The notes beneath the pieces are model-generated. The model saw only the letters and a program-made list of their open reading frames with translations, was not told where the DNA came from and made no database searches. Shown here in pieces: positions 9,658-33,555 of a DNA stretch of 64,000 bases (position 1 is the stretch's first letter; each line of letters starts with the position of its first letter). A program made the position numbers and the translations under genes. Source of the stretch: Candidatus Riflebacteria bacterium HGW-Riflebacteria-1 (GTDB taxonomy: Bacteria; Muiribacteriota; Ozemobacteria; Ozemobacterales; Ozemobacteraceae); assembly GCA_002839445.1 (NCBI GenBank), contig PGYB01000011.1:13817-77816 (forward strand), read 5' to 3'.

Positions 9658-12612
9658 ATGCATGATGATATCAAACTGCGAACAGCGGTTGGATTGGCAT
9701 TTTTTCTGCTGATACTGCTGCCGATGCTTTTTATTACCGCCAGTTTTCGGCAGGCGAACGAAGAAAGCCTGGCACAGCAGCTGCAACTGGCCGAAAACCA
9801 ACTCAAACTCGAAGCGCAGTCATTTCAAAGCGATCTGATCACCAGGCAACGTATTGAGAAGATTATTAAACAGGCTGAGCGTGACACTGGCATTGCCGGA
9901 GCTGCTGCTGAAAAACCGCGATTTGTTAAAGGCGTTGACCCACAGGTTTTTAATTCCCGCACGGTGCCAGATCTGTTGGCAAACTATCGAAAGCTTGCCG
10001 ATGTTGAACCGCTGTTCATAGTTGCTTATGGCGCGGATGTCTGGAATATCTGGAGCTGGTATTCTGCCGATGCCGCGGCTATTTCACAGCCAGATCGCAA
10101 CCGTGTCGACTGGCTGATCAGCGCTATTACCTCTAAACAAGCCGATTTTAAAAGAGTCGACGACAGCAATGCAAATGCAAAAGCCAATTATAAACTGCTG
10201 TGCCGCAAGGCGGCCGGTGATGAGCAAGATTTAACCAAGGCTTATTATCGTCTCATGCGTCGCCATTTTTCCGATATAGTTTTTCCGTTGCCGCATCAGG
10301 GAACCTGTTATGAAATCGCTACCCGAAAAATGGGCTGCAACAGGCTCGTTTCTTATTATCGCACTGTGACCGAAGGAAACAAAATCTATGGAGGTTACCA
10401 TGTAACCTTTACGACCCGGCAGTTTCCACCTCAGAAACTGCTGGCTGATGCGCTAAAAACTGAATCAGCCGGTTTTGCCCGCCACTATCTGAATAACCCG
10501 CCAGATAAGCCCGGGCATGTTGTCGCCACAAAGCATTGGCTGCAACTCGAAACAGATGTTCCAGCTGAGCTGATCGGTTACAACTCACTGTTTGCCCGGC
10601 CCGCAGCATTGCCGGCCGGTTTAAGGGTTGATTCTGACGTGTCAGGCCTGTATCTTGCCGCTGCTTCTTTCAACCGTCTTCTGAACCTGGTGCAGCAGAG
10701 CATCATGCTTGTAAGCTTTGCGGCCATCTGCTTTTTTATATTGTTTGGTTTTCCGGCATTTCTGCGCTTACGCAGGAGAATGCTGCTCGCTGTCGGTCTT
10801 GCGGTTCTGACTCCGTACATTGTTCTCGGACCAGTTGCTATGCGGCTGCTGAATCGTATTGAGAGCCTGGGGCGTTTCGAGTTGCGCGCAGAGAGCAGCA
10901 GTCTCATGTTCAGGTTGCAAAGTTATCATGATGACCAGAGACAGCAGTATCTGCTGCAGGCATTGAAATACAAAGAGCGTCTGGCTGAAATTGTCGATTT
11001 ACCTGCCAGAGAAATATATGAACTTCATGCGCACAATGTCGTGCCGGCCAGCACTCCTGCTGTTCTCTATTTTTTTCGTAATGACGGTGTTGGCAGGTCA
11101 TTCAGGGCTGCAACACCCGAAGTTAAGTCTATTCAAAGGGTTGAATGGCTTTTTTCGGTGAAGCATCTCGACAACCTCGGAGTGCTTGACCGGACTGCCC
11201 CGGATATCAGTAAAAAATTGAAAGTAACGACTTTTGCTGATGGCATCATTGATACTGTCCGCCAGGAATACTTTGACCATAAGGCTTTGCAGTATGAAGC
11301 CAACGAAACTTACGATCTCGGTAAAATTAATGAATTTTCAAGAATGATCTGGTTTCTTGTTCCTGGCGGTAATAACGGCGCCGGCTCTGTGCGGGCCATG
11401 GCTTCCACCAATATCAGCAATCTCCGCTACCTGATCTACAATCCGAATGAATTCGACCGCAGGATTTTCAGCAACTCTTCTGCGCGAATGCAGCATGAGT
11501 TTATCATGGGGCGAAGAGGTCATGACGACCAGATACTGCAGTGGTGGCCAGCTCAGATCAGCCCTGTCGCCGAGTTAAAAGGTCTGCTTGACGAAGCATC
11601 ACGCAAGCGTGCTTCTATGGAACAGCTGAACGGTTCAGACGGTCGCTATCGCCTGGTTAGACAAAGCTTTAACGAGAAGGCCGCTACAGTTTATGCGGGC
11701 ATTTCTACCAGCTCGCCAGATCTGGTGCTGGGACTGGTGAGTAGAGCGTTTCCCTTGCTGGTGCTGATATTTTCGCTGCTCTCGCTGATGCTTTTTGCTG
11801 ATGTCCTCGCAGCTCTTTTTATCAACCCGGTAAAAGGAATCAGCCATGGTGCTGCCGCGATTGAAGCTGGTGATTATTCACAGCATATTGAAATCGAAAA
11901 TACCGACGAGTTTTCGTTGCTGGTTACGTCTTTTAATCAGATGACCAGCGGGCTGGCGCAGCGCGAGAAAATGCGCCGTTTCGTTTCCGATAATCTCTAC
12001 GTTCGACTTGGGACTCAGGTTGGGCTGAACGAACTACGTTCGGCGCAGATGTCGCGCGTTACCATGCTTGCTGCCGATATCCGCGGCTTTACCACTCTCA
12101 GCGAAAAGCACGATCCGCAGCAGATTGTCAGCCTGCTTAACGACTATTTTACGGCCATGGAAGCTGCGATAAATGCTTATGGCGGCGTAATTGAAAGGTT
12201 TGTCGGTGACGCGGTCATGGCAGTTTTTTACCGTGCGGGCGAAACTTCTGGCGAAGTTCAGGCCGCGCTGGCAGCTCTTGCGATGCGGCAGAAGCTTGCG
12301 CTCTTGAATGACGAGAGAGCAGGTCGCGGTCTATTTATAATCGAAAACGGCATCGGTATTGCATCCGGCGAAGCCGCTTCCGGGCTGGTTGGCAGCGAAA
12401 GTGGCCGCATGGTGTTTACAGTGCTTGGCAAGGTAACTAAACTTGCCGAACTGCTGGAAAGTCAGACAAAACATGTTGATTCAAGAGTATTGCTCTGCGC
12501 CGAAACCGCAAGGGCTCTCGGCGAAAGATTTGTGGTGCAATACTCTGAAAAAGTCACTGTCTGTCAGGCTTATGAACTGGTTGGAGCAAAGCCGGAGGCT
12601 GAACATGGCTGA
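9658..12612 (+). CDS. membrane sensor class III nucleotidyl cyclase, A-type subunit (HAMP plus cyclase with metal-binding Asp residues intact)
   Basis: A 984-aa protein with four predicted transmembrane helices bounding two large extracytoplasmic domains. The HAMP region is LAALFINPVKGISHGAAAIEAGDY...FNQMTSGLAQREKMRRF. The cyclase core is TMLAADIRGFTTLSE ... ERFVGDAVMAVFY. The transition-state Asn/Arg position is degenerate (GKVTKLAELLE). Confidence 0.85.
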   Translation: MHDDIKLRTAVGLAFFLLILLPMLFITASFRQANEESLAQQLQLAENQLKLEAQSFQSDLITRQRIEKIIKQAERDTGIAGAAAEKPRFVKGVDPQVFNSRTVPDLLANYRKLADVEPLFIVAYGADVWNIWSWYSADAAAISQPDRNRVDWLISAITSKQADFKRVDDSNANAKANYKLLCRKAAGDEQDLTKAYYRLMRRHFSDIVFPLPHQGTCYEIATRKMGCNRLVSYYRTVTEGNKIYGGYHVTFTTRQFPPQKLLADALKTESAGFARHYLNNPPDKPGHVVATKHWLQLETDVPAELIGYNSLFARPAALPAGLRVDSDVSGLYLAAASFNRLLNLVQQSIMLVSFAAICFFILFGFPAFLRLRRRMLLAVGLAVLTPYIVLGPVAMRLLNRIESLGRFELRAESSSLMFRLQSYHDDQRQQYLLQALKYKERLAEIVDLPAREIYELHAHNVVPASTPAVLYFFRNDGVGRSFRAATPEVKSIQRVEWLFSVKHLDNLGVLDRTAPDISKKLKVTTFADGIIDTVRQEYFDHKALQYEANETYDLGKINEFSRMIWFLVPGGNNGAGSVRAMASTNISNLRYLIYNPNEFDRRIFSNSSARMQHEFIMGRRGHDDQILQWWPAQISPVAELKGLLDEASRKRASMEQLNGSDGRYRLVRQSFNEKAATVYAGISTSSPDLVLGLVSRAFPLLVLIFSLLSLMLFADVLAALFINPVKGISHGAAAIEAGDYSQHIEIENTDEFSLLVTSFNQMTSGLAQREKMRRFVSDNLYVRLGTQVGLNELRSAQMSRVTMLAADIRGFTTLSEKHDPQQIVSLLNDYFTAMEAAINAYGGVIERFVGDAVMAVFYRAGETSGEVQAALAALAMRQKLALLNDERAGRGLFIIENGIGIASGEAASGLVGSESGRMVFTVLGKVTKLAELLESQTKHVDSRVLLCAETARALGERFVVQYSEKVTVCQAYELVGAKPEAEHG

Positions 12613-15493
12613 AAACAAGATACATATCAGTCGCCGCCTCTCGGCAGCAACTCTGGCACTTGCCTGGTTCACGGTGTTTGCCGTGCCGGTTCTGCTGCTG
12701 CAGTTCAGTCTTGATTATCTCTTTAAACTGACACTGCAGGCTAATCAGCAGGCGGCTGCTGCAACGCTGATTGGTGAAATGAGCAGCTTCAAACATGATC
12801 TGGAGACTGAAGCTTTTGTCGAGCGCAAGCTTAAAGCTTTTTTCGGCGGTCAGAATCAACCAGAAAACAACGCGAAAGTAATGCTGCAGAAGCTCAACTC
12901 AACAAGCGGGCTGAGAGTTGCCGGAGTCGTTACCTGTGCCGCCGATACCATGGCAGTCGATTTTGAACTGGACCAGAGCTTGCAGCAACAGATGCCGACT
13001 TTGCCGCGAACCATGATGCAGCGATATCTGTCAGCTGTGAACTATCAGCAGCAGAATGATTTCTACCGCTCTTCTACTACGGCAACCGGCACTGGCAAGC
13101 TGTTTGCTGACTATGACAAGGCCCGCAAAGATGCTGACAGCTTTTTCAGGCGCCAGTTTGGGTTGATCGCCGAGATTCCTTTGCAGCCAGACAAGGTTTG
13201 TCGCACTGTGTCGGCAAAGCTTGCGGGCAGCGCCTTTTTTTACTATCACACTTTCACCAGCAGCGCTGGCGACAAAAATCGAATGAACGGGGGATGTCTG
13301 CTGATTTTGCGGGGGTGTGATCTGAATCAGCGCCAGATCTGGCAGGAAACGGCCAGCATAGCAAACTCTGGTGTCAAACGAAGTTATAGCCGGCTGGCAA
13401 TACCGCTAGCCGGCAAAAGCAACCTTACCCGCGAGATAATCACACGATTCATCTCTGATGAAACAGGTTTTCATCTCGTGTCAGCGCCGCCGGATCATAC
13501 TCTGGTTGACTTGATACAGCGCGGCACTTTTACATTGCAGCAACTTAACCCGGTTCTCAAGGCATTGCCGCTGCTGCAAGTTTCTGTGCCGGCGCGTGAT
13601 CTGCATCACCCTCTTGCCGGTTGGGCCAGGTCAATAAACATGTCTGCACGGCTTTTTGCTATGCTTGGTGCAGTATTTCTGCTGTATCTGTTTTTTTACG
13701 GAATAGACCTCAGACTTGGCATAAGAGGCAAAGTACTGCTCGGGGCCTGGACTATGCTGTTGCTGCCGATAGTGCTGCTGCTCGCCGGCTTTGTTACCTG
13801 GAGTCAGTTTAACCGGATCTATGGCTGGTATCAGGCCGAAGAACTGCAACAGCAGTATTTTAACGAGCTTTATGATGGATTTGGCAGCTACCTTACCCTG
13901 CTGCAGAAGCATAGTATTGCTGTTGCCGCCGAAGTTGACAAGGCACGTAAAAACGACGAAACAGCAATCCCGAGAATCTTGCAAACCGGCCTGGCCAGCT
14001 CCTGTGCTTCAGATATTTATCTCGACCGGTCAGCCGGGCTTAGTCTGCATTTTAAGTCACAAAACTATCACTGGCCAGGCTCGCAGAAAGAAGAATCCGC
14101 GCGGCGGCTGGTTTATGACACAATCCTCAATTCTTTTGACCGCCAGGGCAATTTTGTTGAAACGCTTTCGGACGGTAAAAATCCCGGTGTCACCTCGGTT
14201 GATGCCGCTCTGGTGAATAACCTGATCAACAGCTGGGCAAAGCCGTTCAATATGCTGCGCATCAACACAAACAACCGCTTTTCGACGGCTTTTGTCTACA
14301 ATGATGATAAATACAGCCCTTACGCTCTATTGTCGTTCAAGTATTCTGATATAACCTTGATGCGCGAATTTATCGGCCGGCATTTCAGGCCTTCACCCAG
14401 ATTTTCTGGTATTTCGGCAAAGTTTTTTATTGCAGAAAATAATGGAACTGGTTATCAACTCGTCGATCTTGCCGATGGCCAGCCCCTGCAGAACCAGTCG
14501 TTACTGGAAAAAATCAGCATTGCTGAAGACGTGGAAAACTTTGTCTGGCGCGAACGCAATCAGAATCTTATGCAGACGCGCTGGTTCAACGACTATCCAC
14601 TGGTTATAATGGTTGCCGGCGAAGTTTTTGCCGACGAATCTTCAGTACATCTGGTGCCGGCCATGTTGATTGGCTACGGACTGTTGTTGATACTTTTCAT
14701 TTATCTTTTTTTTGAGTTGATCTATCTGCGCCCGATTCGCGAATTTATCAGAGTAACTGCCGAGGTCGGCGCCGGCAACTATGCCGAGCAGGTGCGCCTG
14801 CAGGCCAATGATGAATTCGGTGATCTGCAGAAGGTATTTGCCGGTATGATTCAAGGGCTTGAACAGCGCCGCAAGCTTACTCACTTTGTTTCGCAGGATG
14901 TTCGGACTGCTGTCGAAAGTGGTGATGATGCCATGACTCCTGGCGGCGTAAGGGTAGCGGCAACTGTGGTCTTCATTCAACTGCAGTCTGTCGAAAGTTT
15001 TGAAAATTGCAGCGCTGACAGAAAGTTCGCGCTGCTCAGTCACTTTATTTCGACAGGTGATCGCATTGTTGATTGCTTTGGTGGCGTAATTGACAAGGTA
15101 GTTGAAGATACTCTGATGCTGGTATTTCGTGAAAATTCGTCATGCGATAGTCACTGTTTGCGCGCCTGCCGCGCCGTTCTGGAGATCGCTGCCGACTTGC
15201 AGGGTGACGGGATGAATATCAGAGCAGGAATAGCCAGTGGCAATGTTGTTTTGGGCCGGATAGGTTCGCGACTTGGCAAGCTGGATTACACTGTTATCGG
15301 TGACACGGTTAATCTGGCAGCACGCTTGAAAGCTTTGCCCGCCAAAGCCGTTGTAACTGGCATCATAATCGCCCCTTCCACAATCAGAATCCTCAGGGGC
15401 AAGGCCCGCGTCGGCTTTCTCGAACGCACCGAAATCAAGGGTAAAAGCCGCAAGTATCCGCTATATGAACTTTTAGAGCTTCGTCATGGATGA
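12604..15493 (+). CDS. membrane sensor pseudo-cyclase/cyclase B-type subunit (HAMP plus cyclase domain lacking the first metal Asp but retaining Asn/Arg)
   Basis: The start MAENKIHISRR overlaps the A1 stop by 8 nt (ATGGCTGA). It has the same four-transmembrane-helix, two-ectodomain and HAMP architecture as A1. The C-terminal cyclase fold has VVFIQLQS instead of F.DI.GFT, keeps the KVVEDTLMLVF region, and has the canonical DYTVIGDTVNLAARLKA. Confidence 0.8.
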
Positions 15494-15544
15494 TATTTCT
15501 GGTGGCGAGCTACAGCCTTTTACAACGATTGTCCGGGTTTCTGC

Positions 15545-16771: not shown

Positions 16772-17048
16772 AAATTTGCTCCCGTGTCATAATAAATACA
16801 ATCCTTACATACGTGGTCGCAACAAAAAAGTCACAAAAATTCATTGACGGCGGTTGATCGCTAAGGCATGGCAACCTCGAAGAGAACCTGCGTAATCTCA
16901 ACCTGTGCCCGCGTGACAGCTAGTTGTGTAATCCGCGGTTTCTTCTCTTTTGACCGAGAATTGCTGTAATTGTCGCTGTCGAATCGTTAAGTGCGATTAG
17001 CTGTGTTATACTGAGTGAAAATTACTGTGTTTCTTCTTAGGAGAACAG

Positions 17049-18176
17049 ATGGAGCTGTTTAATTCTCCGGAATTTGCCGGGTTGGTGGCTTTTGTTTTTA
17101 TCGTGCTGGTAGCCTGGGCCAATCGCTGCTCAAAGTGCGGAAAGCTTTTTACCTGCAAGATCAGAAGCCGCACGCAAACCTCAGAAGGCTACACGCACTC
17201 ATGGGAAGTCGACGAGAAATCGCAACGCGGCAAAAGCGTTCGTCGTTATACTTACCAGTACAACGAAACCTGGGCTTGCAGCAAATGTGGGCATGAATAC
17301 AGCACTTCCTGTTCGAGCTCTTACAGTCTGCCGTGTGGCTACTTTTCCCCAGAAGACCCTGCTAATGCCCAAAATAAAGGTCGCGGCTGCCTTAACCCTC
17401 TCACCTGGCTGAACTGGCTCAATCCTGTGGCCTGGTGGCGCTCGATTCCAGGTAAAAGGTATCTGCCGCTGCTGCCTGTCATCTTTTTTATCGGAATGGT
17501 CGTTTTTGATACCGAAGTCCTGAAGTATCCGACGCATTGGCAGGATTATCTCGAAGATTATGTTGAATTTCTGCTTGAGCCTCTGTCGCCGCGTGCCAAC
17601 AGGCGTACACAGCTCGAAATGGTCGAGGGGCGCTGGCAGACACAGCGCCGCATTCAGGAGTTCAAGCCGGTTGAATACGAAACCTGGGAAGACAGACTTC
17701 CCGAGAATGCAAGGGTTATTGAAAAGACAACAAGGCAACGTCCCCCTCAGTCGTATTATTACACCTATACAACAGCAACAGAACCCGCTACCTGGGTCAG
17801 GTATTCGATAGATTTATGGGTCACCATCGGTACGCTTACCGCCTCCGGCACAGGGTTACCGATTGCTTATCCTGATGATCCGGTCGCGCCCTCGCCCTCG
17901 CCTGGTGAAGCGGTTTACGGTGCCCGCCGCTCAGAGACGCCTACGGTTACCTATTCTCTGGTATTCAGAGACGCTGAGTCTGAAAGGGTCTATTGGGTAG
18001 AAACAATCGGTTTTATCCGCAAGGAAGACAGGTATTTTGCCTGGCAGCGCGAGATAAGTGAGACTGCTTATCGTACACTGATTGCGAGTTCGCAACCATT
18101 GCCAGCTCGGGTTTACGCTCGAAGTTATAATGAGTCACCAAATATTTACATCTATGTTGACGACGTACCTTATTGA
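17049..18176 (+). CDS. hypothetical membrane protein with Cys-x-x-Cys zinc-ribbon motifs
   Basis: An N-terminal transmembrane helix. CSKCGK and CSKCGH motifs are present, plus a second transmembrane segment. An RBS AGGAGAACAG precedes the ATG. Confidence 0.6.
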   Translation: MELFNSPEFAGLVAFVFIVLVAWANRCSKCGKLFTCKIRSRTQTSEGYTHSWEVDEKSQRGKSVRRYTYQYNETWACSKCGHEYSTSCSSSYSLPCGYFSPEDPANAQNKGRGCLNPLTWLNWLNPVAWWRSIPGKRYLPLLPVIFFIGMVVFDTEVLKYPTHWQDYLEDYVEFLLEPLSPRANRRTQLEMVEGRWQTQRRIQEFKPVEYETWEDRLPENARVIEKTTRQRPPQSYYYTYTTATEPATWVRYSIDLWVTIGTLTASGTGLPIAYPDDPVAPSPSPGEAVYGARRSETPTVTYSLVFRDAESERVYWVETIGFIRKEDRYFAWQREISETAYRTLIASSQPLPARVYARSYNESPNIYIYVDDVPY

Positions 18177-19440: not shown

Positions 19441-19450
19441 TCTGCGCAGG

Positions 19451-19471
19451 GGTTCAACATGTTGAACCCCT
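19451..19471. promoter_or_regulatory. perfect 16-bp palindrome GTTCAACATGTTGAAC within GGGGTTCAACATGTTGAACCCC (copy 1)
   Basis: A 22-bp near-perfect palindrome. A second copy lies at 19832-19853. The two copies flank the small gene at 19470..19664. Confidence 0.6.
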
Positions 19472-19664
19472 ACTCGATGTCGACCGAGACGTAGTCGCCC
19501 TCCTGCAGATCGCGATTTTTGAATTTTTCGCGTGGCACATAAATTTCCTGCATTGCCTCAGGATCATCAGGGTGACGAACAACAACAACAACGATGCCGG
19601 CTGTGATGCGGTCGACAACTCCCTGCACCCGTTTTTTCTTTTTAGTATCTCTGGTTCCTTTCAT
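19470..19664 (-). CDS. small hypothetical protein (64 aa), possibly DUF3006-like
   Basis: An ORF with a hydrophobic core GVVDRITAGIVVVVV and a lysine-rich N-terminus. The family assignment is tentative. Confidence 0.45.
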   Translation of the reverse strand: MKGTRDTKKKKRVQGVVDRITAGIVVVVVRHPDDPEAMQEIYVPREKFKNRDLQEGDYVSVDIE

Positions 19665-19755
19665 GGCGTATCCTCCTCTTTCTTTCTATCTTTTTTTCTC
19701 TATCCTAATTCTAATGATTTTTGCTGTTGTTTGCAGGTGTTTTTTGCAGGGGGCT

Positions 19756-19853
19756 CAACATCGTAGAGGGGCAACATCGTAGGGGTTCAACATCGTATGG
19801 CTCAAAATCGTAGGCGTTCAACATCGTAGGTGTTCAACATGTTGAACCCCTGC
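19756..19853. repeat. iteron-like array of six direct repeats of CAACATCGTAG with a 16-bp period, ending in the palindrome GTTCAACATGTTGAAC
   Basis: Repeat starts are at 19756, 19772, 19788, 19803, 19819 and 19835, a spacing of 15-16 bp. The last unit is the palindromic copy. The array lies in the divergent promoter region between the small minus-strand gene and the ACT/UPF0210 operon. Confidence 0.7.
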
Positions 19854-19943
19854 AAGAGATCAATGTATTCTTCTTTACCTTGTTTGAACTATCTGCTATT
19901 ATGCCTCAGTACAACGCGATATAGCCACAGGGGGAGGTTCCCG

Positions 19944-20228
19944 GTGAACAATAACAAGGAACAGGTCGTAATTACCGTGCTTGGCGCCAATAACCCCGGC
20001 ATTCTTGCCGGCATAACCCGCACCATTGCCGATTCAAACGTAAATGTCGAAGACGTCAGCCAGAAAATCATGCAGGATCTCTTTGCCCTGATGATGATGA
20101 CCGACTTTTCAGCGGCCAACTGCAGTTTTGAAGAATTTCAGAACCGCATGCAGGCCATGGCCGACCAGCTTCGCGTCAAAGTTTTCATCCAACACGAAGA
20201 TGTTTTCAGGTATCAGCATCGACTCTGA
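19944..20228 (+). CDS. ACT domain protein (UPF0237 family)
   Basis: The start is a GTG preceded by a strong RBS GGGGGAGG. The sequence VVITVLGANNPGILAGITRTIADSNVNVEDVSQKIMQDLFALMMMTDF matches the UPF0237 ACT pattern. It is paired with a UPF0210 gene as usual for this family. Confidence 0.75.
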   Translation: MNNNKEQVVITVLGANNPGILAGITRTIADSNVNVEDVSQKIMQDLFALMMMTDFSAANCSFEEFQNRMQAMADQLRVKVFIQHEDVFRYQHRL

Positions 20229-20286
20229 TGCTTGATGGTCACCGCGCTGCCCGCCGCCGCGCGTATTGCAACGATGGAGGCAATAA

Positions 20287-21670: not shown

Positions 21671-21706
21671 GGCCCTGAAAGCGTAACACGCTTTCAGGGC
21701 CTTTTT
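21671..21706 (+). terminator. rho-independent terminator after the UPF0210 gene
   Basis: GGCCCTGAAAGCG-taaca-CGCTTTCAGGGCC followed by TTTTT. Confidence 0.8.
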
Positions 21707-24672: not shown

Positions 24673-27586
24673 AATCACCACCCGCAGCACCATAAAAATA
24701 GAGCGTCGTGTCGGCTTTATGACGCTGCTGGCTGTCTGGTTGGCCGTGTTTGTTTTGCCCGTTGTTCTGCTGCAACTGAGTCTCGACTATCTGTTTAAAC
24801 TGACGCGCCAGGCGAATTTGCGGGCGATGACTCCGAAAATGACCAACGAGATGGACAGTTTTCGCAACGACCTCGAAATTGATAACTATCTGCAGAGAAG
24901 CCTCGAAAAGTTCTTTGCTGACCCCGCCAGCCAGTCTGAGAACGATCCGGCAATGCTGGCAAAAAAACTGCGCGCGACTGCAGATCTGCCGGTGGCCGGC
25001 GTAATATCACATTCAGCCGATACCATCAATGTGGAACACTGGTTCGGCGAACAACTCGCCAGAGAAATCCCCAGTCTTTCGCGCAGTCTCACACGCCGCT
25101 GGCTGGTATCAGTCAATGAGCAGCAGCTTTTCCGCTTTCACAGCACTGCAGCCGAAGCCGCTACCCAGGCACTTTTTCGCTTTGTCGATCCGGCAAAGTC
25201 GAAAAGAGATTCAGACCTGTTTTTTCGACGAATGTTTGCCCTGATCGCAGAACTTCCGTTGGTTCCCCGACGGATCACCCGCTCGCTGTCATCGCGACTG
25301 GGCGGCCCGGTGTATTTTTATTACCATCCCTTCGTTGCACCGTCTGCATCTGGTCTGCACATTACCGGGGGGTGTCTGCTGATTTTCCGCGGCCCGGATA
25401 TCGCATGGCGAAAAGTTGCCCGCGCAGCAGTTGAGCGCTCGGCGCCAGGACTGTTTCGCTGTTTTGCCAGGCTTTCGGATTCACTTTGGGAACGCGATAC
25501 CAGTCTTCAAAAGGTTATCACCAGGTTTTTTGAAGACTCTGACGGATATCACTTTCAGTCGACGCTTTCTCAGAGCAGCATGGTCGATCTTACGCAAAAC
25601 GGCTCTTTCATGCCGGTCCGGCTGCGTGAATTTGCCAGCAGAATGCCGCTTCTGCAGATCTCAATTGCCGAATCGCAATTACAGCACCCGTTGTTTCCAT
25701 ATCGATCTCATATCAGCTTTGCCGGAAAACTTTTTGTTTTGTTCGGTACTCTTTTTCTGACCAGCTTTTTTATGTTTGGCTTCGAATTCAAAGCAGGTAT
25801 AACGACCAAAGTGGTTATTGGTACCGCATTTATTCTGCTGCTGCCGTTTCTGCTGCTTCTCGCCGGTTTTGTCAGCTGGAACCAGTTTAACCAGGTTGTC
25901 GGCTGGTACCGGTTGGAATCAGGACAGCAACAGTTGTTTTCAGATTTTACCGACGATTTTGCCACTTTCCTGATCAGTTTGCAGCGCAATACTTATGATT
26001 TGTCGTTACAGCTTGAGAGGCCTCTTGATTCGGGAAAAGACGATGAAATTCAAGGTGTTTTAGCGCGCTGGCTCGACCAGAATCCTGTTGTCTCAGGCCT
26101 GCGTTTTGACCGCAAGTTTAACGACAGCCTGAATTTGCGCTCGCCTTCAGCAAAGGATTCTGATGATGCTGTGCGCGAATCTACCATGCGCCTGGTTGCT
26201 GCAACGATAATGTATGGGTTTGATGATGAAGGAGCGCTGAAAGAGTCCAATAAATTCGGCCAGGAGGGCGATATCACTTCGATAAATTCAAGCTTCATTA
26301 ACGACGTGGTCAATCGTTGCGGCGGAGTTTATCAGTTTGCTTCTTTTGGCAGTAGCCGTAGATTTTCGTCCATATACTATAATTACCCCGGCAAATACAG
26401 TATTCGTGCCATCATCACTGCAGCTTTTGAGCGTGAAAATCTGTTGCGTGAATTCGCCATCAGGCACTTCGCTGCACCATCCGATATTTTTCATCAGTTT
26501 TTTCTGATTCGCGAAGATCTCGGCGTGCCGAGATTTTACAGCCTTACAGACAACAGCGAAGTAACCGATGCAAAGCTGCTCGAACATCTTAATCTGGCGC
26601 TGATTTCCGGGCACAATCTTTATGAGCCGGAAAAGAACCAGCTTGCCCAGATTTTTGCGATGAGTGATATGCCATTGCTGATGCTGACGCGTGGCACAAT
26701 TGGCAGCAGCCAGTTGTTTGCACCGGGTTTTACGATTCTGCTGCTTTTGTATGCGTTGCTTCTCATGGTGCTGATCCTGCTGGTTTTCAAACTGATATAT
26801 CTACAGCCTATCGCGGAATTTATACGAGTCACCGAGAGTGTTGCGGTCGGCGACTATCAGCAGCAGGTCGAACTTTCACAGACCGACGAGTTTGGCGATC
26901 TTAAGGTCGCCTTTGATAGCATGATCAAAGGCCTCGAACAACGTCGTCGCCTCAGTCATTTTCTTTCAAGTGAAGCATTGCGTGCGGTAGAGTCTGATGG
27001 CGATGACAGTATGGCTCCGGGTGGAATACGTCTTGAGGCCAGCGTTGCTTTTGTGCGTCTGCATAACCTTCAGCAGCATGCCCAGGGCTCACAGGCAATT
27101 TTTAAGACACTTGGCGACTTTATCAACGAAGCTGACCGTGCTGCCATGCGTTACGGCGGCGTTGTCGACAAGCTGATCGAGGACACTCTCATGCTGGTAT
27201 TTCGAGGCAACAGCGGTTGTTGCGATCATGCGCCTGCTGCTGCCACGGCGGTACTCGACCTGGTTGCAACGATGCGGAGTTGTGGTTTTGAGCTGCGTGG
27301 AGCTATTGCCAGCGGAACAGTGGTCTCTGGCCGTATTGGCTCACGCCTTGGCAAGCTTGATTTTACCGTGATCGGCGACACGGTAAATCTTGCCGCCCGT
27401 CTCAAGGCCGAAGCGCATCGCACCACACAGACCGGAATCATCGTAGCGCCCTCGACCATACGCCTGTTGCGCGGTCGCGCCCGTGTCAACTTCATTGAGC
27501 GCGTTGAAATCAAGGGTAAAAGCCGCGAATACCCGCTTTATGAGCTGACCGCCCTGCGTCAGAGCTTATCAAAAACTGAAAATTAG
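24665..27586 (+). CDS. membrane sensor cyclase B-type subunit (paralog 2)
   Basis: The start MAEITTRS overlaps the A2 stop by 8 nt (ATGGCTGA). The HAMP region is IYLQPIAEFIRVTESVAVGDY. The cyclase-like core is SVAFVRLHNL ... DKLIEDTLMLVFRG ... DFTVIGDTVNLAARLKA. Confidence 0.8.
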   Translation: MAEITTRSTIKIERRVGFMTLLAVWLAVFVLPVVLLQLSLDYLFKLTRQANLRAMTPKMTNEMDSFRNDLEIDNYLQRSLEKFFADPASQSENDPAMLAKKLRATADLPVAGVISHSADTINVEHWFGEQLAREIPSLSRSLTRRWLVSVNEQQLFRFHSTAAEAATQALFRFVDPAKSKRDSDLFFRRMFALIAELPLVPRRITRSLSSRLGGPVYFYYHPFVAPSASGLHITGGCLLIFRGPDIAWRKVARAAVERSAPGLFRCFARLSDSLWERDTSLQKVITRFFEDSDGYHFQSTLSQSSMVDLTQNGSFMPVRLREFASRMPLLQISIAESQLQHPLFPYRSHISFAGKLFVLFGTLFLTSFFMFGFEFKAGITTKVVIGTAFILLLPFLLLLAGFVSWNQFNQVVGWYRLESGQQQLFSDFTDDFATFLISLQRNTYDLSLQLERPLDSGKDDEIQGVLARWLDQNPVVSGLRFDRKFNDSLNLRSPSAKDSDDAVRESTMRLVAATIMYGFDDEGALKESNKFGQEGDITSINSSFINDVVNRCGGVYQFASFGSSRRFSSIYYNYPGKYSIRAIITAAFERENLLREFAIRHFAAPSDIFHQFFLIREDLGVPRFYSLTDNSEVTDAKLLEHLNLALISGHNLYEPEKNQLAQIFAMSDMPLLMLTRGTIGSSQLFAPGFTILLLLYALLLMVLILLVFKLIYLQPIAEFIRVTESVAVGDYQQQVELSQTDEFGDLKVAFDSMIKGLEQRRRLSHFLSSEALRAVESDGDDSMAPGGIRLEASVAFVRLHNLQQHAQGSQAIFKTLGDFINEADRAAMRYGGVVDKLIEDTLMLVFRGNSGCCDHAPAAATAVLDLVATMRSCGFELRGAIASGTVVSGRIGSRLGKLDFTVIGDTVNLAARLKAEAHRTTQTGIIVAPSTIRLLRGRARVNFIERVEIKGKSREYPLYELTALRQSLSKTEN

Positions 27587-27692
27587 TGTAGCCTTATTGC
27601 ACTGTTTTGCATTGGCTGGAGAGGTTACACCTGTTATCATTTCTCAATTGCGGATGATAACGTGAAAGCGAAATACGCCTGGATAAAACGGA

Positions 27693-30665
27693 ATGGGTAA
27701 TATAAACGAAAAAGCTTTGCGACTGCTGATTGCAGTCGTTTTTGCTGTTCTGGTCTTTTTACCTCTGACGCTTGTGTGTTCAGAACTGTCTGTCATAGCC
27801 GGCCAGAAATACCAGTATCAGGTAAAATTGCTTGAACATGAGCTCAAAGAGCAGTTTAACTCATTCAGAGAAAGTCTTATTCCTCGCCTCTATCTTCAGA
27901 ATATTCTTAAGGCCGGCGAAGCGCATATTGGTCTCACTTCTGAGACTCTGAAGCGCCCGGTTTTTGAACGTGGTATTGACCCGAAGCTTATTACTGCGGC
28001 AACCAGAAAGCAACTGCTTGATTTCTACAAAGACTATGCCGGTATCGAGCCTTTGCTGCTGGTTTCATTCAATGCTGACTTTGCCTCGCTCTGGTCCTGG
28101 TTCAGCCCGGATATGCATGCTTTAACAGCTCAAGCCAGAAATGAGCTTGAAAATGCACTGACCATTTACACCGCGAACCTGTCATCGTTCACCCCGGTTG
28201 TCAATAACGATCCCGATACATTTCATCGTTTCTATCGCATGTATCCAGCTGCCTACGCTCGTTTTGACAGCGGTCAGGGCGCTGGTAGTCTCAAGAAGAT
28301 TTTTCATCGTCTGTTTGCCGATTACTTTTCTGAAATGGCTTATAGCCCGCCGCATCATCAGGGCGTCTGCTTTGAGATAGTCACTGACATGTATGGCAGC
28401 CGGCGTATTTTTACCTATCATAGAGCGGTCAGCCGTCGTCATGAACAGATTTATGGCGGTTATTTTGTTGCCTTTGCCAGCAAACAGATAAGAGTAGCTG
28501 ATATGCTGGCAAATACTTTGCAACGGCAGCAGCCTGGGTTTGTTCGTCAGTTGCTGGCAAGCACTTCATTGCCGCTGAACCGGGTCGTGCATAATGCTGA
28601 TGAATTGCTTATGGCAACACATGTGCCAACCGAACTGGCCGGCTACAATTCGTTGGCGTCGCAGCCACTGCGACTGCCGGGCTATCTCTATGTTTCAGCG
28701 TCTTTACGTGACATCAAAACAGCTTTTCGGCAAAGCCTTCAGCAGCTGAGTTTTCTGCAAAGATTCGCCGCTCTCTCGGTGTTTTGTGGAGCCACTTACT
28801 TCGTTCTGTTTGGCTTTCCACTGCTTTTCAGACTGCGCGCGCGAATGCTCGCCGCTATTACTCTGGTAATGCTGCTGCCTTATGCAATTCTGGGTTTTTT
28901 CTGTTTTGGCCTGCTCGACAGCATCGAAAGCCTCGGCAAGCATGAACTAGAAAGCGAAGCCGGTGGCCTGATGTATCGACTGCACAATTATTTTGACGAC
29001 CAGAAACTGCAGTTCATAATGCATATTCTCAAGGCAAAATTGCGCATGATGAGAGTGGTTGATGCGCCGGCCGATGAAATAATGCGCCTGCCGGCTTCCG
29101 AAATTGTCAGTGACGAGAGTGAAACCAACCTGAGTTTTTTTCGTAATGATGGCGTTACCAGAACCTTTCGTGATCGTGGTTCACCCAATACCGAGGTCGG
29201 CAAACTCGACAACCTTCTGTCGGCAAAGTTTCTAGGTAACCTTGGCGAACTCGAATCAGCCAGTGCCGAAGTAAAAAAAATCCAGCAGCAGTCACAGCTT
29301 GCAGACGGTTTTTTTGAATCATTTCGTCACAACTATTATGAACACAGTATTCTCAGCAATGAGGGAGTCGAAGTCAGAGACATTCGCAAAGTGGATAACT
29401 TTTCGCGTATGATTTATTATCTCATTCCTTCACGCCGGTCAAAAGGCATATCGCGTGTGCGCGCTCTTGCCATGACCGGAACCAGCAGCACAGGGTACAT
29501 TCTGGTGCAGCCAAATGATTTTTCGCCGCAGATCTATTCTGAAACGACTGCGCTGGGTGAGCATGAATTTGCCCTTGCCCAGCGCCGCACCGATGACAGT
29601 GTTTTGCGCTGGTGGCCTGAATACATTAATCCTGATGCTGAGTTGCGCAATCTGCTTGACGTTGCTTCACTCAAGCGGCAAAGCGGGTTTCAGAAAAAGG
29701 CCGCCGCGAAGGGTTTTAAATTTAGCCAGTACCGCTATTTTCCAGACAAGCCGGCAGTTTTTGCCGGGACTTCCCGACATGTTACTGATCACCTGCTCCA
29801 GTTTACCATCAAGGTTTTTCCGGTATTGCTGTTGTTGATTGCAATCGTCAGTTTGTTGCTTTTTGCCGAAATTCTCGCCGCCCTCTTTGTAAGCCCGGTC
29901 AAAGGCTTTCATAAAGCTGCCCGGCTGGTCAGCGCCGGGAACTTCAGTGTGTCTGTAAAGCTCGAAAAAACCGATGAATTTTCGCTGCTCGCTGACTCAT
30001 TCAATCGCATGACTCTCGGGCTGCAGCAGCGCGAAAAGATGCGGCGTTTTGTTTCCGAAGATCTTTATGAGCAACTTGGCAAAAAGACGTTTACCGCAGC
30101 TCCAAGAGTTACGCAACTCACGCTGTTGGCCAGTGATATTCGCGGTTTTACCGCGCTCAGTGAGAAGCATGAACCGCAGCAGATTGTGGGTCTGCTCAAC
30201 GACTATTTCACTGAGATGGAAAGCGCAATCACCAGCAGTGGCGGTTTTATCGAGCGCCTGGTTGGTGATGCTGTTGTTGCGGTTTTTTACCCGTCGCCGG
30301 ATTGTAGCAGCGAAGAAATGGCAATGCAGGCGGCGGTTGGCATGCGCGCGCGGCTGGCTGAGCTTAACCGCGACCGGATTGCGCGCGGCCTGTTTCCCAT
30401 CGATAATGGCATTGGCATCGCTACCGGAACGGCTTTTTCAGGCATGGCCGGCGCCGCTTCCGGCCGTCGTATTTTTTCGGTAATCGGCGAGGTTGCGCGC
30501 CATGCCGAACAGATTGAGAGTGCCTCGCGCCATGTCGCATCACGCATTCTGTTGTGTCCGGCTACCGCAAAAAAACTTGCGCGGCTTTACCGACTCGAAG
30601 ACGCTGCCGCAAAATGCGGTATCAGTGCATATACAATCAGTGCAGCAGGAGGCGACGATGTCTGA
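27693..30665 (+). CDS. membrane sensor class III nucleotidyl cyclase, A-type subunit (paralog 3)
   Basis: A 990-aa protein. The core is TLLASDIRGFTALSEKHEPQQIVGLLNDYFTEMESAITSSGGFIERLVGDAVVAVFY. The Asn/Arg position is degenerate (GEVARHAEQIESASR). Confidence 0.85.
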   Translation: MGNINEKALRLLIAVVFAVLVFLPLTLVCSELSVIAGQKYQYQVKLLEHELKEQFNSFRESLIPRLYLQNILKAGEAHIGLTSETLKRPVFERGIDPKLITAATRKQLLDFYKDYAGIEPLLLVSFNADFASLWSWFSPDMHALTAQARNELENALTIYTANLSSFTPVVNNDPDTFHRFYRMYPAAYARFDSGQGAGSLKKIFHRLFADYFSEMAYSPPHHQGVCFEIVTDMYGSRRIFTYHRAVSRRHEQIYGGYFVAFASKQIRVADMLANTLQRQQPGFVRQLLASTSLPLNRVVHNADELLMATHVPTELAGYNSLASQPLRLPGYLYVSASLRDIKTAFRQSLQQLSFLQRFAALSVFCGATYFVLFGFPLLFRLRARMLAAITLVMLLPYAILGFFCFGLLDSIESLGKHELESEAGGLMYRLHNYFDDQKLQFIMHILKAKLRMMRVVDAPADEIMRLPASEIVSDESETNLSFFRNDGVTRTFRDRGSPNTEVGKLDNLLSAKFLGNLGELESASAEVKKIQQQSQLADGFFESFRHNYYEHSILSNEGVEVRDIRKVDNFSRMIYYLIPSRRSKGISRVRALAMTGTSSTGYILVQPNDFSPQIYSETTALGEHEFALAQRRTDDSVLRWWPEYINPDAELRNLLDVASLKRQSGFQKKAAAKGFKFSQYRYFPDKPAVFAGTSRHVTDHLLQFTIKVFPVLLLLIAIVSLLLFAEILAALFVSPVKGFHKAARLVSAGNFSVSVKLEKTDEFSLLADSFNRMTLGLQQREKMRRFVSEDLYEQLGKKTFTAAPRVTQLTLLASDIRGFTALSEKHEPQQIVGLLNDYFTEMESAITSSGGFIERLVGDAVVAVFYPSPDCSSEEMAMQAAVGMRARLAELNRDRIARGLFPIDNGIGIATGTAFSGMAGAASGRRIFSVIGEVARHAEQIESASRHVASRILLCPATAKKLARLYRLEDAAAKCGISAYTISAAGGDDV

Positions 30666-33555
30666 ACAGATCATCAGAATCAAACGCCGTATAAATGGCC
30701 TGACACTGTTGCTGGTCTGGGTTATGGTGTTTGCGTTGCCGGCTTTTCTCGTTCTGCTGAGTTTGCACTACCTGTTTGATCTGGCCAGAGTCGCCAGGCA
30801 GCGCGCTATCGCCGGCGCAATGACGAGTGAAATGGAAGTTTTCCGCCAGGATCTCGTTGTTTCCAGCTTCATTCAAAACAGTATGGATAAGTATTTTGCC
30901 GGCCTGTCTGATCTGCCAGACTACCGCGACCCGGCAGCAGTTCTGGCGGGCCTGGCATCGGCAACCGGAATTCAACCAGCCGGCATTATCTGCCATGACG
31001 CCGATACCGCTGATTTTGCCCATCACTTTACCCCCTTTCTTGCCCAACAAATTAAGTCTTTGCCGCGTAACCTGATGCGGCGCTATCTGGTGAATCTGAA
31101 TCAGCAGCTGGACTGTAAATTTTACAGCCAGCAGGTCGAAACAGCTACCCGCGCAATGTTTCGCTTTGCCGATGCCGAAAGGGCCGGCAAAGATCTCGAC
31201 CAGTTTTTCCGCCGGGTCTTTACTCTGATCACTGAGATTCCGCTGATTCCACAACGTGTTTCTAAATCGATTTCTTCACAGCTCGGTGGTGTTGTTTACT
31301 TTTATTATCAGCCTTTTATTGTCGATGAAGCCGCTGCCAGGTTTATCAAAGGTGGCTGTCTGCTGATTTTTCGCGGCGCTGAAATTCCCTGGAAAAATGC
31401 TGCGCTGGCGGCGGCGCGGCGTGCTTCGCCCGGACTTCTACGCAGCTTTGTCGGACAGGCAAACTCGTTGTGGAACAGCGATAAGAATAATCCCGAAATC
31501 GTCACCAGGTTTTATGAAGACAGCGCTGGCTATCACCTGATATCAACCTTTTCACAGACCAGTCTGGTCGATATAACACAGGGTGGCACTTTGTTGCCGG
31601 TCAATCTGCGTTCTGTTGCTGAAAAAATGCCATTACTGAAAGTCTCGGTAGCATGGCCGCAGCTGCAGCATCCCCTATTGCCATGGTTGTCACACATCAC
31701 TTTCATTTGTCGACTTTACGTTCTTTTTGGCGCTTTTTTCCTTCTGCGTTTTTTCTTTTTTGGTATCGAATTCAGAGCTGGTATTACCAGCAAGGTTGTT
31801 GTTGGCACGGGCTTTGTTCTGCTGCTGCCAGTTCTGTTGCTGTTGGCCGGTTTTGTTACCTGGCACCAGTTTCATCGTATTTACGGCTGGTACATTGCGG
31901 AGGCAAGGCAGAAAGATGCTTATGTCGATTTCAGTGAAGGCTTTTCCGGTTATCAGACAACATTGCAGAAGAGTATTTTCGATCTATCGCAGACTGTCGA
32001 CAAATTGCTCAGAACCGATCGTTTGCGCAATATCGAAAGCCTGTTCCAAAAGTGGCTCAAAGATTCGATTGCCTCTGATCTGATTCTCGATTTGCCAGAC
32101 CGCCAGAGGATAAAGGTGCTTTCGGCTAAGCATCGTGTTTTAGAGGGACCGCAGGAAGATGCTAACCGTCGCATAACCGGTTTTGCCATTATCAACGCGT
32201 TTGACGAGAACGGTCGTTTTAACGATGTGTTTACCGAAGATCAAAAGCGCGACGCTATTGCTATTGATTCGCAATTTGTCAGCGAAGTGATTAATCGCTG
32301 GGGTCGTCTTTATCAGAATCTGCGCTTTCACCAGGGCAGCCGCTTTTCGACAGTTTATCTGCACGCGCCTGATCAGAATCGGCCAAGCGCTTTGCTTAAC
32401 ATGAAGGTTGGCAATGAAGACATGCTGCGCGATTACGTTCAGCGCCATTTTGTTACAGTACCTGATGTGCAGACGGACTTTTATCTGTTGCGCGACGAAG
32501 ATGGTATACGGCGCTATTACTCTCTGTTTGACCAGCGAGAAGTCAGTGAACCTGAGCTGCTCGCCAGCTTCAATCTGGCCGTGACTTCTGGTCAGCACAG
32601 CCGGCGAATCGCCAACAGGGATCTTGTGCAGATTTTTGCGATGAGTGATTACCCGCTTTTGCTGGTTATGCGCAGCAATAACGTAACCGGCCATTATGGC
32701 AGTCTTAATTTTATCGTTCTGCTGTTGGCTTACGCAGTGCTGCTGCTGTTATTCGTTTTTCTGGTGTTTATGCTCATTTACCTGCGCCCGATCCGAGAAT
32801 TCATCAGGGTGACAGAAGCGGTGGCGGCCGGCGATTATCAGCAGCAGGTCGAACTCTCGCAGGCCGACGAATTCGGCGATCTCAAAACCACTTTCGATAC
32901 CATGATTCATGGCCTCGAACAGCGGCGCCGCCTCGCGCATTTTGTTTCGAGCGAAGTAATCAAGGCAGTCGAGTCAGACTCTGAAGAAAGCATGGCTGTT
33001 GGCGGCGAACGTATCGATGCGACAATTGCTTTTGTACAGCTCGAAAAGCTGCAGCACCTTCAGGCAGATGCAACTGCTGAGCAGGTTTTCGATATACTCA
33101 GCGACTTTATTGCCGCGGCTGATCTCTCAGCCGGCCAGCATGGCGGTGTTGTCGACAAGCTTGTCGAAGATACGCTTATGCTGGTGTTCAGGGGCAACAG
33201 CGAGCGCCCCGATCACGCGGCCGCCGCCTGCGCTGCCGTGCTGGATCTCGAACTAAAAATGCGTGCGCCAGGCTTGCGTATCTGCGCCGGCATTGCCAGC
33301 GGCCCGGTCGTTTCCGGCCGTATCGGCTCGCGTCTCGGCAAACTCGACTTTACCGTCATCGGCGATACCGTTAACCTCGCCGCCCGCCTCAAGGCCCAGG
33401 CCAAAAAAGCCGCCAGCACCGGCATAATAATCTCACCCGGCGCGATTCGCATTTTAAAAGGCCGTGCCCGCGTCAGCTTTATCGAACGCGTCGAAATCAA
33501 AGGCAAAAGCCGCGAATACCCGCTTTATGAGCTTCTCTCCCTGCGCCACACTTGA
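30658..33555 (+). CDS. membrane sensor cyclase B-type subunit (paralog 3)
   Basis: The likely start MSEQIIRIKRR at ATG 30658 overlaps the A3 stop by 8 nt (ATGTCTGA). The ORF-track start at 30493 lies inside the A3 coding sequence and is probably spurious. The core is TIAFVQLEKL ... DKLVEDTLMLVFRG ... DFTVIGDTVNLAARLKA. Confidence 0.8.
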   Translation: MSEQIIRIKRRINGLTLLLVWVMVFALPAFLVLLSLHYLFDLARVARQRAIAGAMTSEMEVFRQDLVVSSFIQNSMDKYFAGLSDLPDYRDPAAVLAGLASATGIQPAGIICHDADTADFAHHFTPFLAQQIKSLPRNLMRRYLVNLNQQLDCKFYSQQVETATRAMFRFADAERAGKDLDQFFRRVFTLITEIPLIPQRVSKSISSQLGGVVYFYYQPFIVDEAAARFIKGGCLLIFRGAEIPWKNAALAAARRASPGLLRSFVGQANSLWNSDKNNPEIVTRFYEDSAGYHLISTFSQTSLVDITQGGTLLPVNLRSVAEKMPLLKVSVAWPQLQHPLLPWLSHITFICRLYVLFGAFFLLRFFFFGIEFRAGITSKVVVGTGFVLLLPVLLLLAGFVTWHQFHRIYGWYIAEARQKDAYVDFSEGFSGYQTTLQKSIFDLSQTVDKLLRTDRLRNIESLFQKWLKDSIASDLILDLPDRQRIKVLSAKHRVLEGPQEDANRRITGFAIINAFDENGRFNDVFTEDQKRDAIAIDSQFVSEVINRWGRLYQNLRFHQGSRFSTVYLHAPDQNRPSALLNMKVGNEDMLRDYVQRHFVTVPDVQTDFYLLRDEDGIRRYYSLFDQREVSEPELLASFNLAVTSGQHSRRIANRDLVQIFAMSDYPLLLVMRSNNVTGHYGSLNFIVLLLAYAVLLLLFVFLVFMLIYLRPIREFIRVTEAVAAGDYQQQVELSQADEFGDLKTTFDTMIHGLEQRRRLAHFVSSEVIKAVESDSEESMAVGGERIDATIAFVQLEKLQHLQADATAEQVFDILSDFIAAADLSAGQHGGVVDKLVEDTLMLVFRGNSERPDHAAAACAAVLDLELKMRAPGLRICAGIASGPVVSGRIGSRLGKLDFTVIGDTVNLAARLKAQAKKAASTGIIISPGAIRILKGRARVSFIERVEIKGKSREYPLYELLSLRHT

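Follow-up and report, generated by a model that had tools for sequence, protein, structure and literature searches.

Can the active site of a class III nucleotide cyclase be divided, naturally and permanently, between the products of two neighbouring bacterial genes? This question is raised by a stretch of 64,000 nucleotides (nt) from Candidatus Riflebacteria bacterium HGW-Riflebacteria-1 (contig PGYB01000011.1; hereafter, the window), in which six large membrane proteins with a HAMP domain and a class III cyclase domain are encoded by three gene pairs, A1/B1, A2/B2 and A3/B3. The full catalytic set, consisting of two metal-binding Asp residues, the substrate pair and the transition-state Asn and Arg, is found in no single A or B protein and is complete across each A-B pair. 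From comparison of the sequences, the two proteins of a pair would most likely (probability about 0.8) work only together, as a membrane-bound heterodimeric adenylyl cyclase of class III (IIIb-like) in which one site is composite and the other pocket is degenerate, an interpretation supported by strong comparative evidence. The pairs extend over positions 9658-15493 (A1/B1), 21727-27586 (A2/B2) and 27693-33555 (A3/B3), all on the + strand. The genes are listed below with the lengths of their products in amino acids (aa); the catalytic signatures are given in the order metal Asp 1 (D1), substrate Lys, metal Asp 2 (D2), substrate Thr, transition-state Asn, Arg, and C1-like and C2-like refer to the two catalytic domains of the mammalian membrane adenylyl cyclases.

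A1: 9658 to 12612, + strand; C1-like subunit, 984 aa; signature D-R-D-T-K-L
B1: 12605 to 15493, + strand; C2-like subunit, 962 aa; signature Q-K-D-T-N-R; IKGK loop present
A2: 21727 to 24672, + strand; C1-like subunit, 981 aa; signature D-R-D-S-G-K
B2: 24665 to 27586, + strand; C2-like subunit, 973 aa; signature R-K-D-T-N-R
A3: 27693 to 30665, + strand; C1-like subunit, 990 aa; signature D-R-D-S-R-Q
B3: 30658 to 33555, + strand; C2-like subunit, 965 aa; signature Q-K-D-T-N-R

The assignments are based on the open reading frame (ORF), Pfam and a transmembrane (TM) scan for all six.

Catalytic residues and protein architecture

The canonical positions were set by alignment to solved class IIIb cyclases, namely Synechocystis Cya2 (2w01), P. 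aeruginosa CyaB (3r5g) and OaPAC (5x4t). In the window copies, they are occupied as follows.

D1: kept in A (DIRGFT or DIRSFT); Q, R and Q in B
Substrate Lys position: Arg in A; Lys kept in B
D2: kept in A (GDAV); kept in B (EDTL)
Substrate Thr position: Thr or Ser in A; Thr kept in B
Transition-state Asn position: K, G and R in A; Asn kept in B
Transition-state Arg position: L, K and Q in A; Arg kept in B

The residues retained in B are housed in the motif GDTVNLAARL. Matches to cyclases of known structure in the PDB go down to 2e-22 for A and 1e-12 for B and include both subunits of soluble guanylate cyclase; the nearest solved catalytic domains by sequence are those of the IIIb enzymes Cya2 (2w01) and CyaB (3r5g). 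All three B copies pair Lys with Thr instead of Asp, as is typical of class IIIb. Since Lys/Thr is the adenine signature of that class, ATP and cyclic AMP (cAMP) would be expected as substrate and product, and the K/T of B thus points to ATP/cAMP and not to a wider range of cyclic nucleotide monophosphates (cNMPs).

A first-pass annotation of the window had already held that the A copies keep both metal Asp residues and have lost Asn and Arg, that the B copies have lost the first Asp and kept DTVNLAARLKA, and that this amounts to a C1/C2-like division of labour. All motif strings quoted there are present and fall on canonical catalytic positions in the alignment to the solved cyclases. The division of labour proved to be family-wide (see below) and extends to two loops that were not mentioned, DIRxFT and K-G-K/R. 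One correction is needed for B: the first Asp is lost, as had been stated, but the second metal Asp (EDTL) is retained in the B copies of the window.

The same annotation had ascribed one common architecture to the six proteins, and Pfam and hydropathy agree with it. All six are + strand ORFs and share four TM helices, two periplasmic domains of ~300 aa each, a HAMP domain and a class III cyclase domain. HAMP (PF00672) and Guanylate_cyc (PF00211) lie above the Pfam gathering score in six of six proteins, the latter with 35-60 bits versus a cutoff of 21.9 and the former with 27-38 bits versus a cutoff of 25 (in A1, E = 4.8e-09 for HAMP and 4e-16 for Guanylate_cyc), and the HAMP domain begins where TM4 ends. 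In the hydropathy scan, TM1 lies at residues ~10-35, a TM hairpin with an Arg-rich cytoplasmic loop at ~345-400 and TM4 at ~685-720, again in all six. The domains are located as follows.

A1 TM1: residues ~10-28
A1 ectodomain 1: residues 30-350, nt 9745-10707
A1 TM2/3 hairpin: residues 351-397
A1 ectodomain 2: residues 398-698, nt 10849-11751
A1 TM4: residues ~700-718
A1 HAMP: residues 717-766, nt 11806-11955
A1 cyclase domain: residues 795-968, nt 12040-12561
B1: HAMP, nt 14726-14866; cyclase domain, nt 14960-15448
A2: HAMP, nt 23884-24033; cyclase domain, nt 24118-24588
B2: HAMP, nt 26801-26941; cyclase domain, nt 27047-27526
A3: HAMP, nt 29874-30026; cyclase domain, nt 30102-30581
B3: HAMP, nt 32782-32922; cyclase domain, nt 33019-33513

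The linker between HAMP and cyclase domain is of equal length in A and B save one gap, and the TM positions match as well. Among the window copies, A proteins are 39-46% identical to each other and B proteins 40-49%, while good alignment of A with B is confined to the HAMP and cyclase domains, at ~27% identity. The N-terminal halves of A and B give weak matches (E ~1e-4), which indicates that the whole architecture is paralogous.

The ectodomains had been described as divergent, and this is borne out by identities of 25-48% among the window paralogs versus 52-82% for the HAMP plus cyclase domains; divergence at such a pace would fit a diversifying ligand specificity. The profile search that had been suggested as a check recovered Guanylate_cyc and HAMP in all six proteins but no dCache or CHASE family on the ectodomains: at E<=10 in Pfam, eight ectodomain sequences gave noise only and no match to Cache, CHASE or any other sensor family. 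In NCBIfam, only the TM4-HAMP stretch was matched, far below cutoffs, and no ectodomain family was found. In an AlphaFold2 model of A1 residues 1-725, ectodomain 1 is confident (predicted local distance difference test score, pLDDT, ~90) and ectodomain 2 is poor (pLDDT mostly <50). Ectodomain 1 may be weakly dCache/PDC-like, the dCache/tandem-PDC sensors Mlp24 (6iop), LuxQ (2hj9) and WalK (4ywz) having been taken for comparison.

Overlap, conservation and co-duplication of the pairs

At each of the three A-stop/B-start junctions the two genes overlap by 8 nt, and a Shine-Dalgarno sequence (GGAGG, GAGG or AGGAGG) is located in the 3' end of A, 5-6 nt before each B ATG.

A1 stop/B1 start overlap, ATGGCTGA: 12605 to 12612, + strand; GGAGG Shine-Dalgarno sequence at 12594-12598, within the A1 coding sequence
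A2 stop/B2 start overlap, ATGGCTGA: 24665 to 24672, + strand; GAGG at 24655-24658
A3 stop/B3 start overlap, ATGTCTGA: 30658 to 30665, + strand; AGGAGG at 30647-30652
Strong intrinsic-terminator-like hairpin: 21671 to 21701, + strand; 14-bp stem followed by a T run, between the DUF711 gene and A2

The overlaps are thus those of the first-pass annotation, ATGGCTGA twice and ATGTCTGA once. The B starts were assigned to the ATG within the A/B overlap; the Shine-Dalgarno sequence before each of them supports this assignment and suggests translational coupling. The description of three tandem pairs holds for the number of pairs but not for their tandem arrangement: the B2 stop and the A3 start are 106 nt apart, whereas ~6 kb of other genes separate pair 1 from pairs 2-3, namely a rhomboid gene (- strand), a hypothetical gene, an ORF-poor stretch of ~1.6 kb and an ACT+DUF711 gene pair. 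The hairpin at 21671-21701 would separate transcription of A2B2(-A3B3) from that of DUF711. A programmed frameshift fusing A and B was considered as well and rejected, as every B has its own ATG and Shine-Dalgarno sequence; it is also contradicted by the length of the overlap, which varies across the family (4, 8 or 11 nt).

Searches of 5.8 billion proteins with A1/B1 returned only a few dozen full-length relatives, the named ones being from Candidatus Rifleibacterium or Riflebacteria. A genome scan yielded 72 loci, in which the full-length relatives belong nearly all to metagenome-assembled genomes (MAGs) of Riflebacteria, Rifleibacteriota or Ozemobacteraceae. The closest relative, from Riflebacteria bacterium GWC2_50_8, is 88% identical to A1, and its contig holds the same three pairs. 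The best-sampled genomes carry at least 4-8 pairs; counted from the fetched loci as lower bounds, there are 8 in one MAG and at least 6 in GWC2_50_8. Members were also seen in MAGs labelled as other phyla, namely L045 (DYKG01000045, Methylomirabilis), L059 (SABV01000407, Erysipelotrichia) and P0009. Because the distribution is otherwise strictly Riflebacteria, these look like binning or labelling errors, not horizontal transfer.

All ORFs of all loci were scanned with a family hidden Markov model built from the six catalytic domains, and the six catalytic columns were read. In the 59 A-type proteins outside the window, D1 and D2 are each conserved in 59/59, while Asn and Arg are each present in 2/59, these two positions being hypervariable with 13-14 different residues. 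In the 52 B-type proteins outside the window, K, T, N and R are each invariant (52/52), D2 is found in 29 of them, and D1 in none (0/52), its position being taken by nine different residues but never by Asp. The phosphate-loop motif D-[ILVM]-x-x-[FYW]-[TS] (DIRxFT) occurs in 44/44 A and 0/44 B proteins; conversely, the K-G-K/R loop is invariant in 44/44 B proteins and absent from A. The recurrence of the complementary pattern in 59 A-type and 52 B-type proteins of other genomes excludes chance.

A profile of the A sensor module, run against 1.84 billion representative proteins, gave 109 matches, of which 81 are A-type, 8 B-type, 2 partial and the remainder fragments. Among these 109 matches, neither a complete catalytic set nor an A-B fusion was found, the longest protein having 1055 aa. 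The shorter HAMP-cyclases from the genome scan (515-650 aa; Burkholderiales, Chloroflexota, Fibrobacterota), on the other hand, all have a complete DxDTNR set. Conventional cyclases with a complete set also adjoin some of the pairs, at L048:17000-19135 (- strand) and L033:15875-17890 (+ strand); one has the layout dCache_1-HAMP-cyclase (DKDTNR), and in the other the cyclase domain is N-terminal (DKDDNR). As Riflebacteria thus possess complete-set cyclases too, the half-site design is specific to the family with four TM helices and not phylum-wide.

A and B are always neighbours across the loci. Where two cyclase genes adjoin, the order is A->B in 47 cases and B->A in 11, and neither A-A nor B-B neighbours occur; the B->A junctions are in part inter-pair, and the others belong to a subclade with reversed coupled order in which B has His at D1. 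When the nearest in-frame ATG is taken as the downstream start, the genes overlap by 8 nt (ATGNNTRA) in 28 cases, by 11 nt in 10 and by 4 nt (ATGA) in 6. In a mirror-tree comparison of 44 complete pairs, A-A and B-B distances are correlated with r=0.98, a value reached by 0/1000 permutations, and in 34/44 cases A and B have the same pair as nearest neighbour. The correlation indicates that pairs duplicate as units, in line with what had been supposed at the outset. When the six signature columns are left out, a neighbour-joining tree built on the cyclase domain places all 62 A sequences in one split and all 55 B sequences in another (bootstrap 26/40 and 28/40), which implies that A and B each arose once and were then duplicated together. 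Within the window, A2/A3 and B2/B3 are mutual closest relatives, which would be consistent with tandem duplication of a whole pair.

Proteins of ~960-1000 aa with the same topology of TM1, ectodomain, TM hairpin, ectodomain, TM4 and HAMP, and with a SpoIIE/PP2C phosphatase as output, are also encoded in Riflebacteria (L016:16121-21845, L021:4018-9839, L025:4021-9827, L030:2530-8351 and L041:2212-5127); the output domain was confirmed by Pfam on the L041 member. Their genes form adjacent same-strand pairs in L016, L021, L025 and L030, with overlapping ends in the latter three, while a single gene was seen in L041. Detectable sequence similarity to the sensors of the cyclases is restricted to the TM hairpin region. 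Because these proteins of the same topology are paired as well, it is suggested that pairing is a property of the sensor scaffold rather than of the cyclase.

Composite-site model, alternatives and genomic surroundings

A class III dimer has two interface pockets. According to the model favoured here, translational coupling would probably keep the amounts of A and B roughly equal, since the start codon and Shine-Dalgarno sequence of B sit inside the end of A. Side-by-side assembly of A and B would then give a pseudo-symmetric receptor with 8 TM helices and four different periplasmic domains, in which the HAMP domains of A and B form a mixed four-helix bundle and their cyclase domains dimerise head to tail. 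Of the two interface pockets, only one would be complete. To this pocket A, corresponding to mammalian C1, would contribute both metal-binding Asp residues and the phosphate loop DIRxFT; B, corresponding to C2, would add the Lys/Thr pair that specifies adenine, the phosphate loop KGK and the Asn and Arg of the transition state. The other, degenerate pocket may be a regulatory site, by analogy with the forskolin site of the mammalian enzymes and the non-catalytic site of the chytrid RGC1/NeoR pair discussed below. Ligands or other signals in the periplasm would act through the fast-diverging ectodomains and HAMP to set the level of cAMP synthesis. As to its evolution, the family would have a single origin, probably within Candidatus Riflebacteria, where nearly all recovered members belong, and would have been expanded by whole-pair duplication; the sensor scaffold may first have become an obligate heterodimer, after which selection would have kept one interface site while the other decayed.

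Several points weigh against this model. The A and B class definitions partly rest on residues that were afterwards counted; the K and T of B, the phosphate loop, the KGK loop and the adjacency are independent of these definitions. Sampling of loci was seeded with two A-type peptide patterns, so that divergent unpaired relatives may be missed. Support for the monophyly of A and B is moderate (65-70% bootstrap). Loss of Asn/Arg lowers activity and does not always abolish it, and A homodimers could therefore stay weakly active. Finally, cross-pairing could occur among the paralogous pairs.

As one alternative, A and B might each dimerise with themselves; the A homodimer would then be a weak cyclase lacking the transition-state residues, and the B homodimer a catalytically dead receptor or pseudoenzyme that only modulates A or signals otherwise. 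In the literature, homodimers are the general description for bacterial class III cyclases (PMC9552081), and A retains both metal Asp residues, with Lys at the substrate position in about half of the A-type proteins. Yet B conserves K, T, N and R (52/52) and the KGK loop (44/44) while being unable to bind metal A, and conservation of these residues in the absence of D1 makes sense only if they face a partner that supplies the Asp pair. Hypervariability of the Asn/Arg positions of A (13-14 residues), strict adjacency, start/stop overlap and the co-evolution of r=0.98 would likewise be unexpected for independent homodimers, which makes this alternative improbable. Somewhat less so, but still unlikely, is the assembly of promiscuous heterodimers, in which any A would combine with any B of a genome to give combinatorial receptors instead of fixed cognate pairs. 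With HAMP and cyclase domains that are 52-82% identical among the window paralogs, the interfaces may be compatible, and at least 4-8 pairs would be available in the best-sampled genomes; translational coupling, however, favours cognate co-assembly, and the r=0.98 correlation together with the shared nearest neighbour in 34/44 cases suggests pair-specific co-adaptation. Such A_i/B_j pairing is a possible variant of the composite-site model.

It is very improbable that both pockets are inactive and that the cyclase domains do no more than dimerise or bind nucleotides. The catalytic set is indeed incomplete in every individual protein, but across each pair the canonical set has stayed intact in >100 proteins that have diverged to ~25% identity, which argues for purifying selection on one working site. 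Hardly credible, lastly, is a role in anti-phage defence, be it as a Pycsar-like cyclic-nucleotide system or in an accessory role to the CRISPR-Cas locus nearby, whose type I-E cas operon lies 2 kb upstream of the first pair. The PycC models of PADLOC match the cyclase domain weakly, with 20-51 bits, which is no better than the generic Pfam cyclase match and is expected for any class III domain. PycC is a soluble cyclase with an adjacent cNMP-activated effector, whereas the pairs encode 1000-aa membrane sensors with a periplasmic sensor and HAMP layout typical of environmental sensing; no effector gene is adjacent to them, and no effector-type Pfam domain occurs in the neighbours. Flanking genes tested with PADLOC gave no match, and no Cas3 match was found near pairs in the other 72 fetched loci, fourteen of which instead place pairs after conserved ACT+DUF711 genes. 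Type I-E systems are not known to use cyclic-nucleotide signalling. On the evidence of PADLOC, neighbouring genes and Cas3 proximity, the CRISPR/defence link was rejected, and the CRISPR adjacency looks coincidental, as the first reading had allowed for.

The type I-E effector operon itself occupies positions 343-7711 (- strand), 2 kb upstream of A1, and encodes Cas3 (HD and helicase), Cse2, Cas7 (CT1975), Cas5 and a Cas6e-like protein; a 506-aa protein that has no Pfam match occupies the position of the large subunit. The ACT+DUF711 (UPF0210-type) pair at 19830-21648 is 86-98% identical across Riflebacteria MAGs, and in the fourteen loci (L001-L009, L013-L015, L017, L018) one or two A-B pairs follow directly downstream of it. 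Between pair 1 and this gene pair lies, at 17049-18176 (+ strand), a gene for a hypothetical protein of 375 aa with an N-terminal hydrophobic segment, the CxxC motifs CSKCGK and CSKCGH and no Pfam match, which is conserved (41-80% identity) between cyclase pairs and ACT+DUF711 in L006, L007, L009 and L014. It is followed by ~1.6 kb (18.2-19.8 kb) devoid of any ORF >85 aa. In this region, directly upstream of ACT+DUF711, a unit of 15-16 nt (approximately GGCTCAACATCGTAG) is repeated in tandem, with overlap between the copies, at 19752-19851, along with two near-perfect 28-nt palindromes, GCAGGGGTTCAACATGTTGAACCCCTAC, at 19446-19473 and 19826-19853; the repeats at 19446-19853 may constitute a regulatory repeat region. 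Rfam and tRNA scans revealed no RNA genes in the window, the stretch of 18.2-19.8 kb included.

Downstream of B3, an islet at 33589-36768 (- strand) comprises a hypothetical gene, a ParE-like toxin, a Uma2 family endonuclease and a Bro-N domain protein; copies of Uma2 are again found downstream of pairs in several other loci. Further on, at 38866-44934 (- strand), a 1808-aa Kelch-repeat protein adjoins a protein whose N-terminus carries a methylation motif like that of type IV pilins. Across the loci, no conserved accessory gene common to the subfamilies was found; flanking ORFs cluster by local synteny only, the clusters beside the pairs being ACT+DUF711, an ABC transporter and PmbA/TldD.

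Relation to known cyclases and significance

The closest known systems include the mammalian membrane adenylyl cyclases (class IIIa, C1/C2), which match in their division of labour: one domain carries the metal Asp residues and the phosphate loop, the other the Lys, Asn/Arg and the Lys of KGK, and one active site coexists with one degenerate pocket, there the regulatory forskolin site. The gene order A-then-B parallels the order TM1-C1-TM2-C2 of the mammalian protein. The mammalian type, however, is a single chain with two 6-TM domains. The pairs share its complementary C1/C2 residues, but they are two coupled polypeptides with separate starts and Shine-Dalgarno sequences, and each subunit has 4 TM helices, two large periplasmic domains and a HAMP domain where the mammalian halves have 6 TM helices. 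Moreover, their signature is IIIb-like K/T instead of the IIIa K/D, and the family is bacterial, lineage-restricted and probably of independent origin.

The same logic is known from a laboratory construct and from other eukaryotic heterodimers. For Rv1625c, a metal-Asp mutant and an Asn/Arg mutant reportedly reconstitute one active site (Guo et al. 2001); these complementing mutants follow the logic of A plus B, but they are laboratory constructs of a natural homodimer, whereas the Riflebacteria split is natural, fixed and family-wide. The alpha/beta subunits of soluble guanylate cyclase (3uvj, 6jt0) form an obligate paralogous heterodimer with one catalytic and one pseudo-symmetric site; in contrast to the pairs, this enzyme is eukaryotic, soluble and GTP-specific, with haem-NOB/PAS sensors. 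The chytrid RGC1/NeoR system is likewise encoded by separate genes. NeoR resembles A in having the metal Asp residues and no NxxxR, and RGC1 resembles B in having NxxxR together with the residues that specify the base; one site is catalytic, the other non-catalytic and apparently regulatory (PMC12264004). Disabling the non-catalytic site there leads to a ninefold rise in activity (PMC12264004). A lacks NxxxR and keeps the metal Asp residues, as does one subunit of this two-gene system, and B shows the converse. The differences are that RGC1/NeoR is eukaryotic, has rhodopsin sensors and makes cyclic GMP, that RGC1 retains its own metal Asp, and that the genes are not operon-coupled.

As regards bacteria, the HAMP-linked class IIIb cyclases, represented by CyaB (3r5g) and Cya2 (2w01), share the layout of membrane sensor, HAMP and cyclase. 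The shorter relatives of canonical form (Burkholderiales, Chloroflexota) have the full DxD...TNR set and are taken as homodimers; in comparison with the pairs, they are only 515-650 aa long, with 2 TM helices and one ectodomain at most. In the account of Schultz 2022, bacterial class III cyclases are homodimerising monomers and fused dimeric species are unknown in bacteria (PMC9552081), the homodimers being treated as having two equivalent sites and the asymmetric one-site design as a eukaryotic result of gene duplication and fusion. In full-text literature, with subscription literature outside the scope, no account was found either of the Riflebacteria family or of a class III cyclase that occurs naturally as a heterodimer in bacteria. 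Summarizing, the principle is known; what is apparently new is its realization in bacteria by two genes, expanded within one lineage and equipped with a new 4TM double-ectodomain sensor. We see an even chance that the pairs are the first class III cyclases found to be obligate heterodimers as a natural family in prokaryotes, an independent and unfused C1/C2 split, with a receptor that integrates more than one external signal, an allosteric second pocket and a pairing borne by the scaffold.

In this family, subfunctionalisation to one site would have become fixed in bacteria in the form of two coupled genes, in >100 proteins and one frameshift short of fusion, which would provide a natural, genetically simple model for the evolution of asymmetry in dimeric enzymes. 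The family raises the question whether obligate heterodimerisation came first and was followed by decay of one site, and it would offer a test bed for the function of a degenerate second pocket. In addition, it would have a HAMP receptor that is heterodimeric, which is apparently rare, with two different sensor halves to integrate. The double-ectodomain module, previously undescribed and perhaps weakly dCache-like, dominates cAMP-related, and apparently also PP2C-related, signalling in this uncultivated phylum; if the composite-site model is true, the receptor could merge several external signals at a single catalytic site.

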